A program made the translations under genes and the position numbers. This document shows, piece by piece, positions 28,762 to 34,256 of a DNA stretch of 41,168 bases (the stretch's first letter is position 1; every line of letters starts with the position of its first letter). This stretch comes from an uncultured bacterium (GTDB taxonomy: Bacteria; Patescibacteriota; Minisyncoccia; UBA6257; GWB1-50-10): assembly GCA_903827975.1 (NCBI GenBank), contig CAIKKG010000024.1:66523-107690 (forward strand). Direction: 5' to 3'. A model generated the notes under the pieces. That model was not told where the DNA came from. It saw only the letters and a program-made list of their open reading frames with translations, and searched no databases.

Positions 28762-30219
28762 TTATGGATATGGTATGAGCGAGCCCCCTTGTGGCGTGAT
28801 GTTTGGAATATTTTTATTTACTTCACGTGCTTTTCTCATGTCCGCCCTAAATCCGAATAGTGTGGATTGTAGTTCGCTCTCTATCGAAAGACCAGTCCCA
28901 ATCAAATTATTTTGTTCATTTGGATCATTTGTGAGATCATATAACTCATCTTTTGTGTTTATTGGCTCGTGCGTTATTAGTCTTTTCATCCAATAGTCAT
29001 ATGTGTTGAGTCCATCCTTTATTGCTGGGTTTCTCATAATGTATTTCCAATTGCCACGACGAACAGCGTATTCATCAAAGGGTGGTCGTTCTGTAAAAAT
29101 ATCATGTGATAAAACCTCACCATTTATGAGTGGAATGATGTTTGTTCCACTTGTGTGTTCTGGCGGTACACCCTGCGCTATAGCAACGAGTGTGGGCATA
29201 AGATCCATCGTATTTACAGGCGTCGCAATGCGCATCGGTTTAATATATGGGGGATAGATGATAGCAAGTGGAACGTGTGTGTTTACCTCGTAAAGATCAC
29301 GATGGAAGAAGTATCCGTGCTCTCCAAGATCATCACCATGCTCACTGCTTATAATAAACATTGTGTCTTTATACCAAGGTTCATTTTTAATACTTTCAAA
29401 GAATGTTCGGAGTTCCTCATCTACGTACTGAACACCTCTGTCATATGCCTCATTTAGGTATTTCTTATCATCATCTGTAAATTGGTGGAGGGTTGTTGCA
29501 TCTCTTTTTTCGGATGTATACATCGGGATAGACGAGGTACTCTGTGCTTCCCAAATAAACGAATGTTCCATTTTTGAATCATCAAAGACACTATTGTAAG
29601 AGCTCGACGCGCTCATATATGGAGAATGAGCGTCATAGATGTGCCAAAATATAAATGTAGAATTTCCCTTTTTTAAATATTCAGAAACATCCGTTTTTGA
29701 AAACGCAACATTCTTTGTGTTTTCGCTCATTTTGTAATACTGGAAGCTAGTACTCCACCCAAAGCGCGGCCATAGGCTTGGTGAAACAAATCCTGCTGTG
29801 TTGTATCCATAGTTTGTAAGTATGGAGGGGAGTAAAGGAAGAGATTTATTTATTGGGGTAGTCCACTGAATAACATTATTTTCCGAAGGATAGAGGCCGG
29901 AAAATAGCGCTGCATCACTTTGGAATGTTAGATATGCTGGAGTTTCAGCATTCTCAAAAATTGCACCCTTTTTCATAAGTGAATCAAGAAACGGTGTTGT
30001 GTCTTTTGAGTATCCATAGATGCCCATGCGGTCAGCACGCAACGAGTCTATATTTATAACTACAATGTTTTTAGGTTTTGGTATTTCTAGCGGATGAATA
30101 GATTCACTTTTTTGTATTTTTAAAACAATAATAACCGCGGTTATTATTGTCGCGGTTATTGTAAGCACTAACGCTTTATATATTATTTTTTTCCTGTTGG
30201 TTTTGTAATCGGTAGACAT
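28762..30219 (-). CDS. Membrane-anchored sulfatase-like (alkaline phosphatase superfamily) protein 1
   Basis: N-terminal TM; NIVVINIDSLRAD, HIYDAHSPY, SEHGD and ELYDLTNDPNE motifs. Start 30219 or 30255. Confidence 0.88.
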   Translation of the reverse strand: MSTDYKTNRKKIIYKALVLTITATIITAVIIVLKIQKSESIHPLEIPKPKNIVVINIDSLRADRMGIYGYSKDTTPFLDSLMKKGAIFENAETPAYLTFQSDAALFSGLYPSENNVIQWTTPINKSLPLLPSILTNYGYNTAGFVSPSLWPRFGWSTSFQYYKMSENTKNVAFSKTDVSEYLKKGNSTFIFWHIYDAHSPYMSASSSYNSVFDDSKMEHSFIWEAQSTSSIPMYTSEKRDATTLHQFTDDDKKYLNEAYDRGVQYVDEELRTFFESIKNEPWYKDTMFIISSEHGDDLGEHGYFFHRDLYEVNTHVPLAIIYPPYIKPMRIATPVNTMDLMPTLVAIAQGVPPEHTSGTNIIPLINGEVLSHDIFTERPPFDEYAVRRGNWKYIMRNPAIKDGLNTYDYWMKRLITHEPINTKDELYDLTNDPNEQNNLIGTGLSIESELQSTLFGFRADMRKAREVNKNIPNITPQGGSLIPYP

Positions 30220-31583
30220 TGATCTGCATATACTGGTGAGCAACCTAGTATCCATGGCCCCTTATCCGCATTCATTGCCTTAAGGTGTGCGAATAGTTTT
30301 TGTTCTAGTTCGTATGCTATTTTACCCTCTTTTACAGAAAGGTTTGTCTGTTCGTTTGGATCAGTATTCAAATTATACAACTCCTTTTTCCCGGTCTCCA
30401 TTGTTTCAATAAATTTCCACCCATCAACCGTTGTTATGCTGCGCTTATGTGTGTAGAGCCTGTAATCCGTTTCTGAATATACGTCATGCGCCACAGGTGT
30501 TCCTGAAAAGGATGGTGAGATATCAACTCCTTTCATAGCTTCTACAGGAGCAATTTTGAGCATTGAGAGTACTGTTGGCGCAAGATCAAGCGTACTCACA
30601 AGATCTGTGATTGTTTTTGGTTGTGTCTGTCCAGGTGCGTGAATTGCAAAAAGCGTATTAAGTAGCTCACCATAGAGTGTGTGCCCATGATCAATGCCAT
30701 TGTGCTCAAAGAACTCGGTTCCATGATCACTTATAACGGCAATAATTGTGTTATCCGATATACCTAATGAATCTACATATTTCATAAAGTCACCGAACTC
30801 AGCATCTGCTCTTGAAATCTTCTCATCGTAGATTGCTCTCCAGAAGGCTTTATCTTCTGCGGAAAGCGAGAGGCCATGATTTGCAAGACTCTGTTCGCGA
30901 AGTATTCCTTGTTCCTTTGTACTACCAGTATATATTCCATTATATGGTTTCTGTACGTAACGGTAGTCATACTCCTTTGGTGCATACTGACCATGAACGT
31001 CATAACCATGTACGAATAGGAAGAATTTATTATCCTTATTTTTTGAGAGCCAGTCCTTAGCCATCGGCACGCTTGTATCTAACCCACCAAATGTTGTCTT
31101 GTCGTAATACGTATCAAATCCTTGCGCGTGGCCAAATGCAGCACTGATGCCAGCATCGCCGGTGAATCCTGCGGTTGCATATCCATTTTGTTTTAAGATT
31201 TGCGCAAGTGTTACTGCGTTAGGACTTAGGTTTTTTAAATTAGCTTTTACTAGCGATGTTGTTGCTCCAGTAACATCTTCAACCATCTTGTTTACAACCT
31301 TGTGTTCGCTGGGGTATAGGCTTGTGAATATAGACATAAAAGATGGAACGGTCCACGAGGCTGGGCTAACCGTGTTTCTGTAGAGGTATGAGTCTCCGAG
31401 AAACTTATCAAGATTTGGGGTTATATCTTTATCATATCCATATGCTGGTAGATGTTTTGCTTGGAGCCCATCAAACGCAAATACAATTAGGTTGCGCTGT
31501 TGTTTTGGTTTTATTGCAACAAAATAGATTGCGGAAATGATTGCAATACCAACAAGAAGTGTGGTGATGAGTTTCGGTTTCAT
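30183..31583 (-). CDS. Membrane-anchored sulfatase-like protein 2
   Basis: N-terminal TM; FDGLQAKH, WTVPS, HGYDVH, SDHG, HGHTLY and ELYNLNTDPNEQ motifs. The ORF-track extension to 31847 is judged spurious. Confidence 0.88.
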   Translation of the reverse strand: MKPKLITTLLVGIAIISAIYFVAIKPKQQRNLIVFAFDGLQAKHLPAYGYDKDITPNLDKFLGDSYLYRNTVSPASWTVPSFMSIFTSLYPSEHKVVNKMVEDVTGATTSLVKANLKNLSPNAVTLAQILKQNGYATAGFTGDAGISAAFGHAQGFDTYYDKTTFGGLDTSVPMAKDWLSKNKDNKFFLFVHGYDVHGQYAPKEYDYRYVQKPYNGIYTGSTKEQGILREQSLANHGLSLSAEDKAFWRAIYDEKISRADAEFGDFMKYVDSLGISDNTIIAVISDHGTEFFEHNGIDHGHTLYGELLNTLFAIHAPGQTQPKTITDLVSTLDLAPTVLSMLKIAPVEAMKGVDISPSFSGTPVAHDVYSETDYRLYTHKRSITTVDGWKFIETMETGKKELYNLNTDPNEQTNLSVKEGKIAYELEQKLFAHLKAMNADKGPWILGCSPVYADQCLPITKPTGKK

Positions 31584-31600
31584 ATATTCCATTGTAACAA

Positions 31601-31821
31601 AAAAACACCCGAATGGGTGTTTTCTCTTTTGTGGAGATGACCGGAGTTTCACTGCTCGACCATTCAGAATGTTCTCCACTCTAAAACCCTGCGGTTTTAG
31701 TATTTCCGCCACGGGGAAACAAGTTTCCCCGACCCCCTTTTTCGGTTCAACTCCTCTGGTTATGTTAAAAAATAAAAACACCCGTTTGGGTGTTTTCTCT
31801 TTTGTGGAGATGACCGGAGTT
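31601..31821. repeat. 48-bp direct repeat (tmRNA 3' end plus terminator) flanking a 125-bp hairpin-rich insert
   Basis: 31601-31648 and 31774-31821 are identical at 46/48 positions; the insert carries an inverted copy of the tmRNA T-arm. Confidence 0.9.
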
Positions 31822-32143
31822 GAACCGGTGTCCAAAATACTTCTCACAAACCGTCTACAAGCTTAGTTCGATTTAACTCGGAACAAATGATTCTAATTTT
31901 AACAACGGTTTACGAATCATTACGCCGTTGCGATTTTCAAATATAACACCGGCACTCCTCTATGAAACCTCGAGGACCGATGCCACTGCTATAAAAGCGG
32001 TGGAACACATTCATTACGCAAAAGCGAATGAAGGTGCTGCAACACGAGTGTTGTCAGTTAATGTTTTTTGAATGGTTTATACGAGGCACTCAGCTCGGCC
32101 TGCAAATTTATGAGTGGGTATTCTGTCAAAGCCCAACATCCCC
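31805..32143 (-). ncRNA. ssrA: tmRNA
   Basis: 5' GGGGATG pairs with 3' CATCTCC-A including G3-U; T-arm CCGG-TTCAACT-CCGG; tag frame 32055-32014 encodes (A)DNTRVAAPSFAFA*; lies 18 bp downstream of smpB; CCA not encoded. Confidence 0.95.
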
Positions 32144-32161: not shown

Positions 32162-32596
32162 CTAGATATTCCTTCGGATTTCGCGCTCAGTATCTCTCTT
32201 CTTAATTGCTTCGCGTTTGTCAGCCTTATTTTTACCACGCCCTAATCCGAGCTCAATCTTTATAAACCCACGAATATTATACGATTTTAGGGGTACAAGT
32301 GTCAATCCTTCGTTTAGTTTACCAAAAACATGCTGTATCTCCTTTTTTGTTAGTAGGAGTTTTCGTGTGCGCATCGGGTCATAATTACTAGGAGCATTCT
32401 TTACCTGGAATGGATGTATTGTTGCTCCAACTAGGTATGCCTCACCACCACGAATAATCGCGTGACTTCCTGACAAATCAAACCTGCCCATTTTAACAGA
32501 TTTTGCTTCATGACCAAGAAGCTCAACACCAGCTGTGAGTTTTTCCTGAATCTCGTAATCGAATGTTGCCTTTTTGTTTATTGAGTATGGTTCCAT
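32162..32596 (-). CDS. smpB: SsrA-binding protein SmpB
   Basis: NKKATFDY, AGVELLGHEAKSVK, RTRKLLL and DKREAIKKR motifs. Confidence 0.97.
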   Translation of the reverse strand: MEPYSINKKATFDYEIQEKLTAGVELLGHEAKSVKMGRFDLSGSHAIIRGGEAYLVGATIHPFQVKNAPSNYDPMRTRKLLLTKKEIQHVFGKLNEGLTLVPLKSYNIRGFIKIELGLGRGKNKADKREAIKKRDTEREIRRNI

Positions 32597-32672
32597 TACT
32601 ACTTCAAAATAGCACTTTATTTAATGGGTTGAAAGACTTTTGTATTTTGCCAACGTCTGCTTTAATGAGTAT

Positions 32673-34256
32673 ATGAGAGAGAAGATAATATCTTTGCTTA
32701 AAAAACAAATTTCAGAGGATGTAATGCCTGTGGTTTCTGTTGCGGAAAATAAAGTGTTTGGGCACTACACAACAAATATTGCATTCAGACTTGGTAAGCT
32801 TCGCGGGAAAAATCCGCGCGATGTGGTTGAGGATTTGGCAAAAGAAATAAAAAAAGAAAAGTTATTTGAACGTGTCGAGGTTGCCGGTGGGGGATTCTTA
32901 AATTTTTGGATTTCGCAAAAAACTCTCGCTAAGGAACTCACTGAGATTTTAAATAAGAAAGATTTATATGGTAAAAAGAAACTTCCAAAAGGAAAGAAGA
33001 AGAAAATCCAAATTGAATTCATTTCTGCAAACCCGACTGGACCACTTACACTTGCGAACGGCAGGGGCGGTTTTTTGGGTGATGCGATTGCAAATGTATT
33101 AGAGTCCGCGGGTCACAATGTTGAGCGTGAATATTATGTAAACGATGCTGGTAATCAGGTGCGCACGTTTGGACTTTCACTTATTGCTTGTGCTGGCATA
33201 ATTCCCTTTGAGGAGAATTTTTATAAAGGCGAGTATGTAAAGGAGTGGGCAGAAAAGAATGTTAAAACCGTAAAAAAGCTAAAAGATGATCCAGAAAAAC
33301 TTGGAGCAACAGCAGCGAAAGATTTTTTGAAGTTAATTAAAATTGCAGTAGAGAAGAAGGCGGGGATAAAGTTTGATAGGTATACATCGGAGAAGCTGGA
33401 TGTTCATGATAAAAAGTATATTGAGAAGACACTTAAACTTTTTAGTGAGCTTGGGGTGTCTTATGAGCAGGATGGTGCGTTGTGGCTTCGAACAACAGAC
33501 TACGGTGATGATAAGGATAGAGTTCTTATAACTAGTGAAAAAACGCCAACATATTTTTTGGCAGATGCTGGGCATTATCTAGAAACAAAAAAGAGGGGAT
33601 TTGATGGCAAGATTCTTATTCTAGGTCCAGATCACTACGGATATGTAAGCAGAATTCAGGCTGCCGCAAAGATTGTTGGGTTAGAGAATTCAGACGTTAT
33701 AATCACCCAGGCTGTTAGATTATTAAGTGGTGGAAAGGAGGCTAAAATGTCTAAGAGAAAGGGCGTTTTTGTTACGTTTGGAGAGCTTGTTGAGGATGTC
33801 TCTGCTGATGCTGCCAGGTTCTTCTTTTTGATGATTTCTCCTGATACTCATATGGACTTCGATATTGATTTAGCAAAAGAGCGCTCACTTAAGAACCCCG
33901 TATTCTATGCCCAGTATGCTCATGTGCGAGCGCTTAGCATTATTAAAAAAGCGCGGGTTAAAAAAGGTAAGATTGATTTGTCTTTACTAGATACTAAGGA
34001 GGATATAAATCTCATCCTTAAGCTTTCTGAATTCCCAGAAATTCTAGAGGATTCTTCAAGTGACTATGCAATTCATAGAATAACGCGATACATCCTGGAA
34101 CTTTCAAAAACATTCCATAACTTCTATGAGGTTGAACGGGTAAGTGGGGTATCAGATGAGCTTGCTCGTGCAAGACTTGAGCTCGTATCTGCTTCTGCAA
34201 TTGTTATTAAAAATGCACTTGATGTTCTCGGTGTTGGCTCGCCAAAAAAGATGTAA
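32673..34256 (+). CDS. argS: Arginine--tRNA ligase
   Basis: GFLNF, EFISANPTGPL, DDKDRV, KMSKRKG, NPVFYAQYAH and C-terminal PKKM motifs. Confidence 0.96.
   Translation: MREKIISLLKKQISEDVMPVVSVAENKVFGHYTTNIAFRLGKLRGKNPRDVVEDLAKEIKKEKLFERVEVAGGGFLNFWISQKTLAKELTEILNKKDLYGKKKLPKGKKKKIQIEFISANPTGPLTLANGRGGFLGDAIANVLESAGHNVEREYYVNDAGNQVRTFGLSLIACAGIIPFEENFYKGEYVKEWAEKNVKTVKKLKDDPEKLGATAAKDFLKLIKIAVEKKAGIKFDRYTSEKLDVHDKKYIEKTLKLFSELGVSYEQDGALWLRTTDYGDDKDRVLITSEKTPTYFLADAGHYLETKKRGFDGKILILGPDHYGYVSRIQAAAKIVGLENSDVIITQAVRLLSGGKEAKMSKRKGVFVTFGELVEDVSADAARFFFLMISPDTHMDFDIDLAKERSLKNPVFYAQYAHVRALSIIKKARVKKGKIDLSLLDTKEDINLILKLSEFPEILEDSSSDYAIHRITRYILELSKTFHNFYEVERVSGVSDELARARLELVSASAIVIKNALDVLGVGSPKKM

Follow-up and report, generated by a model that had tools for sequence, protein, structure and literature searches.

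The locus studied here raises a simple question: why is the 3' end of a transfer-messenger RNA (tmRNA) gene present twice, with a short piece of hairpin-rich DNA in between that carries an inverted segment of the same gene? The window (the whole stretch of DNA that was analyzed, 41,168 nt) was taken from the genome of an uncultured patescibacterium, the source genome (GenBank assembly GCA_903827975.1, contig CAIKKG010000024.1, positions 66,523 to 107,690 of the forward strand). An earlier reading made from the letters alone, the sequence-only reading, had described a 173-bp unit beside the tmRNA gene. This unit is a recent insertion of a small mobile cassette. It belongs to a widespread, apparently undescribed family of tiny protein-less cassettes in Patescibacteria, here called R1.

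The direct repeat, the inverted 12-mer and both hairpins of the 173-bp unit lie where the sequence-only reading had placed them. The direct repeat pairs 31596-31648 with 31769-31821 over 53 nt at 92% identity with a spacing of 173, and consists of the tmRNA 3' part from the middle of the T-loop, the trailer and the terminator. The 46/48 match claimed for the duplicated tmRNA 3' end was confirmed, and both differences are in the loop of the terminator hairpin (31612-13 versus 31785-86). The inverted copy of the T-arm (the arm) at 31743-54 is 100% complementary to 31816-27. The chance expectation of such an inverted 12-mer is ~2e-4, an estimate from ~114 x 33 position pairs x 4^-12. Both hairpins, 31681-31700 and 31712-31731, appear in the predicted fold of the 235-nt strand (-52.7 kcal/mol, z -6.6), which 0/200 shuffles equaled, and are backed by covariation among 74 distinct copies. 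On the plus strand, terminator-like sites were identified at 31602-31623 and 31775-31796; the minus strand has one at 31797-31774. The 125 unique bases have no room for a recombinase, as had been said, and the insert contains no endonuclease gene, for which there is likewise no room; sister cassettes with an open reading frame (ORF) do exist. The only long frames crossing the insert are the read-through of the downstream gene frame (30183..31847, minus strand) and a 109-codon plus-strand frame.

A one-off island scar was ruled out, since R1 is present in 6 copies in the source genome and in many relatives. The 760-kb source genome carries full copies at the tmRNA, tRNA-Asp, tRNA-Pro(tgg), tRNA-His, tRNA-Glu(ctc) and tRNA-Gly(gcc) genes. 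All six are behind the gene and in one orientation relative to it, and tRNA-Asp has a truncated second unit. A covariance model of R1 matched 36/61 related genomes, the source genome included, with a maximum of 20 copies in a congener (G001). The R1 core was found with the covariance model in 10/151 genomes sampled across the phylum, again including the source genome. The exact core pattern was present in at least 121 stretches of species-representative genomes, and nearly all of the 80 matches shown were titled Patescibacteria or Parcubacteria-group. The core pattern had no match in viral contigs, and the 125-nt insert had none in phage and plasmid records. In Rfam only tmRNA and tRNA models reached gathering scores, and the core was unmatched at E up to 1 at 5 loci. 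Full-text literature searches, supplements aside, returned no description of such cassettes.

From the gene outward, R1 consists of the working gene end, a short flank that at tRNA genes holds the terminator, an inverted copy of the initial 11–20 nt of that end, the two-hairpin core, a variable body that contains a third hairpin, and finally the gene end once more, as a dead direct copy. The site is just outside a conserved gene end, mostly at the 3' side of tRNA and tmRNA genes. In alignments the bodies vary between sub-types and the ends are common to all. The sequence-only reading had predicted copies next to different tRNAs and an antisense arm that co-varies with the adjacent tRNA, and both were found. 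56/70 distinct fetched copies have a same-strand tRNA or tmRNA gene directly upstream, and 8 more have tRNA-type arms. For arms and their own tRNAs, the median longest exact match is 11.5 nt (range 6–20), versus 6 nt for non-cognate tRNAs (2978 pairs). The cognate tRNA was the best or tied match for the arm in 41/56 copies and strictly the best in 28. Among the arms of at least 9 nt (n = 46), 28 start 22 nt before the called tRNA 3' end (G53) and 44 start 21–24 nt before it. A guide or recognition role for the arm, as had been suggested, would fit this exact register at the junction.

The direct copy is at least 10 nt long in 51/56 copies, and its longest exact stretch ranges from 6 to 72 nt. 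It starts 14–18 nt before the called tRNA end (T-loop positions 57–61) in 36/51 copies. Exact identity stops 0 to +4 nt from the tRNA end in 34/51 and extends at least 10 nt past it in 9. The T-loop of the dead copy is frequently unlike the target at loop positions 58–60. The duplicated gene end is more than a simple integrase att repeat. An RNA origin of the duplicated end was also considered and rejected: CCA is encoded in 8/56 cassette-bearing tRNAs versus 8/48 tRNAs of the source genome, which gives no signal.

The R1 hairpins are under selection. Across 74 distinct copies, 97.9% of 1254 cells held standard pairs and 15/17 pairs had changes on both sides. Shuffled controls reached none of the five measures (0/500), and sliding the pairing partners destroyed the signal. 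Hairpin 2 keeps its pairing through compensatory changes in an orthologous pair of copies at tRNA-Leu(gag) of G001 and G006 (loci L108 and L116), in which the proximal terminator is common and the arm, the body and the distal terminator differ. An A-G mismatch recurs in 13 cells across all 17 pairs; those seen by eye are at one hairpin 2 position, and the mismatch may be a conserved non-canonical pair and not decay. Wobble pairs favor the tRNA-sense strand 16 to 7 in an alignment fitted on that strand, a bias too weak to name the functional strand or the kind of nucleic acid.

One explanation for an arm that begins exactly at the junction and abuts a conserved, structured scaffold is guide-directed insertion. 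The arm and the hairpin scaffold beside it, as a transcript or as single-stranded DNA, would then be a programmable guide for a nuclease or recombinase acting in trans, comparable to bridge RNAs, omega RNAs and the exon-binding sites of group II introns. The use of one scaffold at many unrelated targets and, weakly, the wobble bias toward the strand on which the alignment was fitted are in its favor. Against it, a guide fixed inside the element cannot alone explain why each copy matches its neighbor. We consider this explanation unlikely, and the search for an effector, described below, bears on it further.

Empty sites had been expected in relatives, and they were found there as well as in the natural population. 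A 20,247-nt contig from DNA run X7, which is from another sample and another study, joins 31613 to 31787 and skips exactly 173 nt. Both flanks have at most 2 differences, and 35 letters fit either side of the joint. The empty X7 allele has the loop variant of the gene-side terminator. Runs X4 and X5 contain the filled form. One X5 contig has an additional 11-nt deletion in the dead tmRNA 3' copy (31630-31640), in agreement with the dead copy lacking function. Of the seven congeners, G005 and G006 have the element at the tmRNA locus, G003 has its right half, and G001, G002, G004 and G007 have none of it. The tRNA-His site is filled in 5 genomes and empty in 2; the tRNA-Pro(tgg) site is filled in 2, empty in 2 and possibly a scar in 1. 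At tRNA-Ala(ggc), G001 has a filled site; in G006 and G007 the site is empty, and the next gene follows after 18–19 nt with no terminator. At the filled site (locus L102, ~540-860) an extra ORF of ~100 codons, absent from G006 and G007, separates the orphan tRNA-Ala end from the conserved gene further downstream; by eye its product looks MazG-like.

These data also bear on whether the unit could be a degraded remnant of a larger island integrated at the tmRNA gene, or an artefact of assembly. Islands are well known to occupy tmRNA genes, and their ends are marked by displaced pieces of genes (accessible text of PMC4383910). Against this, the same core occurs at many genes and in many genomes, filled and empty alleles are present in independent assemblies, and the unit is complete with the same layout everywhere. 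A remnant or artefact is therefore extremely improbable.

The sequence-only reading had proposed a non-autonomous element aimed at tRNA-like T-arms. The many copies at tRNA and tmRNA genes bear out part of this proposal, but the targets are wider and include one tRNA 5' end and five protein-gene ends. The targets of 55 copies fall under 16 labels, namely 15 tRNA amino-acid types and tmRNA. The 14 copies without a called tRNA comprise two at tmRNA, one at a partial tRNA-Thr, five with T-arm-type arms whose tRNA is beyond the fetched stretch or uncalled, one at a tRNA 5' end, and five at protein-gene ends. The tRNA 5' end (locus L015) belongs to a tRNA gene lying antisense, as identified with Rfam. 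The protein-gene targets are the 3' end of rplK (twice), the 5' end of rplK, the 5' end of a class-I tRNA synthetase gene and the 5' end of rnhA, all named by reading the peptides and without a family search. The junctions at these genes sit in highly conserved codons. The orphan 5' ends retain the start codon, and by hand count 18/24 (rnhA), 17/22 (rplK) and 15/18 (class-I tRNA synthetase) residues match the working copy. The DNA of the working and orphan ends is visibly different. Because the peptide is kept while the DNA differs, either the working or the orphan copy is an allele that stems from a different lineage.

R1 could in principle be a passive by-product of replication or repair, without any dedicated element. 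A nascent strand would switch templates at the terminator hairpin and at T-loop microhomology, and the core would be copied from elsewhere. The repeat does stop in or just after the terminator T-tract at the tmRNA, tRNA-Pro and tRNA-Gly loci of the source genome, and T-loops provide ~10 nt of common sequence between tRNA genes. This account is nevertheless quite improbable given hundreds of copies in one orientation and register in many genomes, hairpins maintained by compensatory changes, and protein-gene targets that have no T-loop. For the tmRNA copy, simple fold-back copying at the terminator was rejected, since its inverted segment matches perfectly over 12 nt and is unrelated beyond them. 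An earlier tRNA target as the origin of the rest of the arm was rejected as well, since no tRNA of the source genome provided a convincing match.

Copies also stand side by side, and similar cores occur at different targets. Tandem arrays with truncated outer units were identified at tRNA-Asp of the source genome and at loci L023, L035 and L104. Second, weaker matches were seen a few hundred bases from the first at L029 (2059-2137, plus strand), L118 (764-843) and L137 (522-599); these are local arrays, one in the opposite orientation and two in the same. A tree of 55 cores was poorly resolved (2 starred branches of 52), and its labels clustered slightly beyond shuffled labels both by target (38 versus a mean of 42.6) and by genome (34 versus 37.9). 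In G001, cores and bodies with short tree branches and few differences by eye are present behind at least 8 tRNA species, and these near-identical cores have unrelated flanks, terminators and arms.

Coordinates of the features at the tmRNA locus. Positions are those of the window; a dot marks a feature without strand.
Feature	Position	Strand	Evidence
tmRNA gene (ssrA), intact; its T-loop holds the junction	31802..32143	-	ARAGORN (32143..31802/31804); Rfam RF00023, 126.7 bits; RNA contig
Proximal terminator hairpin behind the working tmRNA 3' end	31774..31797	-	Terminator sites and fold; two loop letters unlike those of the distal hairpin
Antisense arm: tmRNA T-loop and first part of the 3' T-stem, inverted	31743..31754	+	Fully complementary to 31816-31827 over 12 nt
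Conserved R1 core: G-rich leader, hairpin 1 (31712-31731), linker, hairpin 2 (31681-31700)	31673..31742	-	Covariance model, 86.4 bits, E 5.6e-21
Variable body up to the right junction; sub-type also at tRNA-Asp and tRNA-Thr	31649..31672	-	Alignments
Displaced dead tmRNA 3' copy (from mid T-loop), trailer and distal terminator (31601-31623)	31596..31648	-	Direct repeat
173-bp unit, present or absent as a whole; phase arbitrary within the repeat	31614..31786	.	Contig of DNA run X7
Downstream gene, sulfatase / type I phosphodiesterase family; outside the element, marks the far flank	30183..31592	-	Pfam PF00884, E 1.7e-34; start 31592 or 31583

The sulfatase-family gene starts 9–18 nt past the second terminator. 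The smpB gene (32162-32596; Pfam SmpB) adjoins the tmRNA gene directly upstream, and an arginyl-tRNA synthetase gene diverges from it (32162-34256; Pfam), which is ordinary context. An RNA-library contig spans 31803-32140 at a depth of 255 and ends at the mature tmRNA; its flanking letters, which match nothing in the window, were taken to be sequencing adapters. The contigs of this single RNA run cover the mature tmRNA and leave the R1 element uncovered, which, for contigs, is no proof that a transcript is absent. No promoter-like site was found in the region of the element. The sequence-only reading had also raised the possibility that the arm pairs with the precursor RNA and affects its processing. 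This found no support, as the arm is behind the terminator and the RNA contig ends at the mature tmRNA.

A co-occurring recombinase or nuclease had been anticipated, and none that tracks R1 was found among the families searched. Tyrosine recombinase genes (PF00589) were present once each in the source genome, G001, G006, G021 and G048, and three times in G028. In the source genome and G001 the gene adjoins tRNA-Leu(tag). In a search that covered tyrosine recombinases, no cognate integrase was identified in or near R1 or elsewhere in the genome.

The tyrosine recombinase is central to another explanation, site-specific integration of a ~170-nt circular or folded single-stranded element by a host recombinase, for example a single Xer-like enzyme, with crossover in the T-loop. 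In its folded form the arm and the gene-end copy would pair into a stem resembling the target duplex, much like the attP hairpin of CTX phage or the attC sites of integrons. Much of the anatomy agrees with this: a precise 173-bp indel with the repeat on either side, junctions at one T-loop position with a dead copy that often differs at loop positions 58–60, tandem arrays as expected from repeated integration, and a structured spacer of ~100 nt flanked by the arm and the gene-end copy. A conserved tyrosine recombinase was also present in every carrier examined. However, the six genomes checked were the source genome and the five top carriers, so its presence in all six provides no contrast, and in the source genome and G001 the gene is simply a conserved neighbor of tRNA-Leu(tag). 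Known tyrosine recombinases need a fixed core site, while R1 targets include unrelated protein-gene sequences. The orphan ends derived from diverged alleles point to exchange over homology, and no circle junction was seen in the contigs examined, a weak point as only contigs were used. On balance, site-specific integration is possible but doubtful, and the stem-mimicry form of it equally so.

The remaining enzyme searches were no more successful. Neither the Y1 transposase (PF01797) nor TnpB had a match in the source genome, which is 97% complete. A Y2 search had no match anywhere, and its controls were equally silent. Two genes for IS110-type DEDD transposases (PF01548) were identified in the source genome, on contigs C25 (2517 nt) and C19 (2453 nt), and none in the five richest carriers (0/5). 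C25 and C19 may be mis-binned; on one of them the IS110 gene adjoins, by eye, an apparent repeat-protein gene. Reverse transcriptases (PF00078) were found in 22/61 genomes, made up of 15/36 carriers and 7/25 non-carriers, and were not found in four of the five richest carriers (G001, G006, G021 and G028). The source genome has one on a short contig and a second short reverse transcriptase-like match on another. No Rfam match to an intron or retron was obtained at R1 loci.

These results eliminated three types of known element. A palindrome-associated transposable element (PATE) or a repetitive extragenic palindrome (REP) moved by a RAYT transposase was rejected on the lack of a PF01797 match in the source genome and because R1 is an insertion with duplication. 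An IS110/IS1111 element with a bridge RNA was rejected on the distribution of PF01548, and a retroelement (group II intron or retron) on the lack of linkage between PF00078 and R1 and of an Rfam intron or retron match. They also tell against guide-directed insertion, for which no matching effector was found: TnpB and Y1 are unmatched in the source genome, the IS110-type genes are confined to its two 2.5-kb contigs, and the reverse transcriptase is unlinked. The lack of a promoter-like site in the region and of an RNA contig over the element weighs in the same direction, within the limit already given for contigs.

The small GIY-YIG nucleases gave a different picture. 17/30 fetched loci with a small GIY-YIG gene have a tRNA or tmRNA gene within 400 nt, and at the loci examined the nuclease gene lies between the dead and the working part of a tRNA or tmRNA gene, forming ORF-bearing cassettes of R1-like layout. 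An R1 core was found within 1.5 kb of 0/30 of these loci. Among the 61 genomes, which are relatives and not independent, 32 have both R1 and a small GIY-YIG gene, 4 have R1 without it, 16 have the gene without R1 and 9 have neither. Small GIY-YIG genes are thus strongly associated with tRNA genes but only weakly with R1. The only contact between a nuclease gene and R1 was seen at the tmRNA locus of G003 (L039, ~1840-2320), with the tmRNA, a 91-codon GIY-YIG gene, the right half of R1 and a degenerate tmRNA 3' end. In the source genome, GIY-YIG genes of ~80 codons (82 at tRNA-Tyr) are present just upstream of tRNA-Gln and tRNA-Tyr (C14:32997-33200, minus strand, and C1:87370-87615, plus strand; loci L049 and L050). 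Each is preceded by a dead tRNA 5' part with a GC-rich hairpin insert, which mirrors the 3' cassettes.

The reading that we tentatively favor, with a little less than even confidence, is that R1 is an ORF-less gene-end-replacement cassette of the homing type, its mechanism being inferred. The cassette would spread in the manner of a homing element, though without an ORF, and would bring a replacement gene end. When a naive allele undergoes a break or strand invasion at its conserved junction, repair would draw on an allele that carries the cassette, with the gene body as the left homology and the displaced gene end as the right homology. Because these two serve as homologies, the gene would never be lost. 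More speculatively, the inverted arm might pair with the first gene-end copy and mask it, or with the displaced target strand, so that joining would occur at the second copy. Homing would account for the allele-like orphans, for the stop of identity at the gene end, and for the indifference to downstream synteny.

Several observations weigh against homing. It does not explain the reach of the core to many targets, the repeats that include a terminator, or the role of the arm, and the role proposed above for the arm is itself speculation. None of the nucleases or recombinases searched tracks R1. No small GIY-YIG gene was found in the carriers G001 (20 copies), G005, G011 and G031, which have only a GIY-YIG frame of ~400 codons, inferred from its size to be UvrC-like. 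Since the target stays complete in the working gene, there would be no obvious immunity to a homing nuclease. At tRNA targets the right homology measures only ~20 nt. The near-identical cores behind at least 8 tRNA species in G001 call for easy retargeting or gene conversion and not allele-to-allele homing. The repeat takes in the local terminator at the tmRNA, tRNA-Pro, tRNA-Asp and tRNA-Gly loci of the source genome, and this looks more like in-place copying or a second round of insertion than like an imported flank. Finally, the arms of the L108/L116 pair have diverged while hairpin 2 pairing is kept, so the arm may lack lasting selection.

In a further, more novel reading, the core and the arm would be a self-contained, protein-less targeting module acting as RNA or single-stranded DNA. 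The arm would pair with one target strand and the duplicated end with the other, host replication or repair would carry out the insertion, and arms would be re-templated at each target. We give this only a minor chance. If true, R1 would represent a class of guide-directed mobile elements that is new and has no enzyme gene of its own.

R1 was compared with known systems that share some of its properties. Mobile ORFs (mORFs) that carry a foreign C-terminus for a gene are described from fungal mitochondria, in atp6 of Allomyces and in atp6, atp9, cox2 and nad3 of Glomus. Their duplicate ends differ in DNA and encode nearly the same peptide, which was read as horizontal transfer (accessible text of PMC3630166, for both statements). 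R1 is like the mORFs in that an insert in a conserved gene brings a replacement end and leaves the native end downstream as a duplicate (PMC3630166). The mORF pattern of a foreign end with a displaced native end was found in R1, where either copy could be the foreign one. Unlike the mORFs, which are ~1 kb and code for a LAGLIDADG or GIY-YIG nuclease themselves, R1 lacks an ORF, and its core and body amount to ~100 nt. The hairpin scaffold and the inverted target copy have no counterpart in the accessible part of the mORF description (PMC3630166), and R1 targets are mostly bacterial tRNA genes and not genes of fungal mitochondria.

Islands and prophages placed in tRNA and tmRNA genes by tyrosine integrases (tDNA islands) and their integrase-less derivatives, the cis-mobilizable elements (CIMEs), also regenerate their target and leave a displaced 3' fragment at the far end (accessible text of PMC4383910). 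The R1 junction is in the T-loop like that of Ms6, for which a T-loop attP is given in the available part of PMC1762012. Tandem arrays at one tDNA are a further likeness to the islands. In contrast to both islands and CIMEs, R1 has no integrase in or near it, is ~125–175 nt long and has an inverted target copy. Such islands use one attachment site per lineage, whereas R1 has 16 target labels as well as protein-gene ends, both 5' and 3'.

Integron attC sites and the attP(+) hairpin of CTX phage are folded single-strand sites, each used by one dedicated recombinase at one target type. By analogy, R1 could be viewed as two inverted target-like arms around a structured spacer of ~100 nt, with a G|TT step at the junction and a structure conserved beyond the sequence. 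Unlike in attC and CTX attP(+), the arms of R1 change with each target, and no IntI-like enzyme was found.

Miniature inverted-repeat transposable elements (MITEs), REPs and bacterial interspersed mosaic elements (REP/BIME), PATEs derived from IS200/IS605, and Rickettsia palindromic elements are small, non-coding, hairpin-rich, multi-copy and patchy among strains. R1 shares these properties. Unlike MITEs, R1 has neither constant terminal inverted repeats nor a short fixed target duplication, and its inverted ends are target-derived and copy-specific. Unlike miniature palindromic repeats in general, it is strictly at gene ends and accompanied by a gene-end duplicate.

The SegB protein is a free-standing GIY-YIG homing endonuclease in the tRNA gene cluster of phage T4 (accessible text of PMC2330249). 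Like segB (PMC2330249), R1 is a selfish element tied to tRNA genes. The sister cassettes at tRNA genes of this clade hold small GIY-YIG genes. Unlike segB, which is protein-coding and for which no gene-end duplicate is reported in the available text (PMC2330249), R1 lacks an ORF and is also present in genomes in which a small GIY-YIG gene was not found.

R1 is not alone in the source genome. At least 3 further core families of R1-like layout were seen on contigs C1, C4, C5, C14, C24, C27 and C39; by their targets, the same-layout families are those of Tyr/Trp/Pro-cgg/Arg-gcg, Gly-ccc/Gly-tcc and Leu-gag/Lys-ttt. Of the tRNA and tmRNA genes of the source genome, 11/49 are followed by a 3'-end duplicate no more than 450 nt away, and an inverted T-arm copy was seen at 12. 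A 3' duplicate, a 5' duplicate or an inverted T-arm copy was found at 16/49.

The combination of a target-matched arm with a conserved scaffold makes R1 a possible compact insertion module that is naturally retargetable. Some cultivable relatives are naturally transformable, and this idea could be tested in them. Few cultivable relatives exist (accessible text of PMC10633639). R1 accounts for many tRNA fragments and repeats in Patescibacteria assemblies, and probably for some contig breaks, and it marks the horizontal exchange of gene ends between lineages. The cassettes show how DNA can parasitize essential genes while having neither introns nor inteins and encoding no enzyme. If our reading holds, up to about one third of the tRNA genes in some of the smallest known bacterial genomes carry selfish cassettes of this layout.

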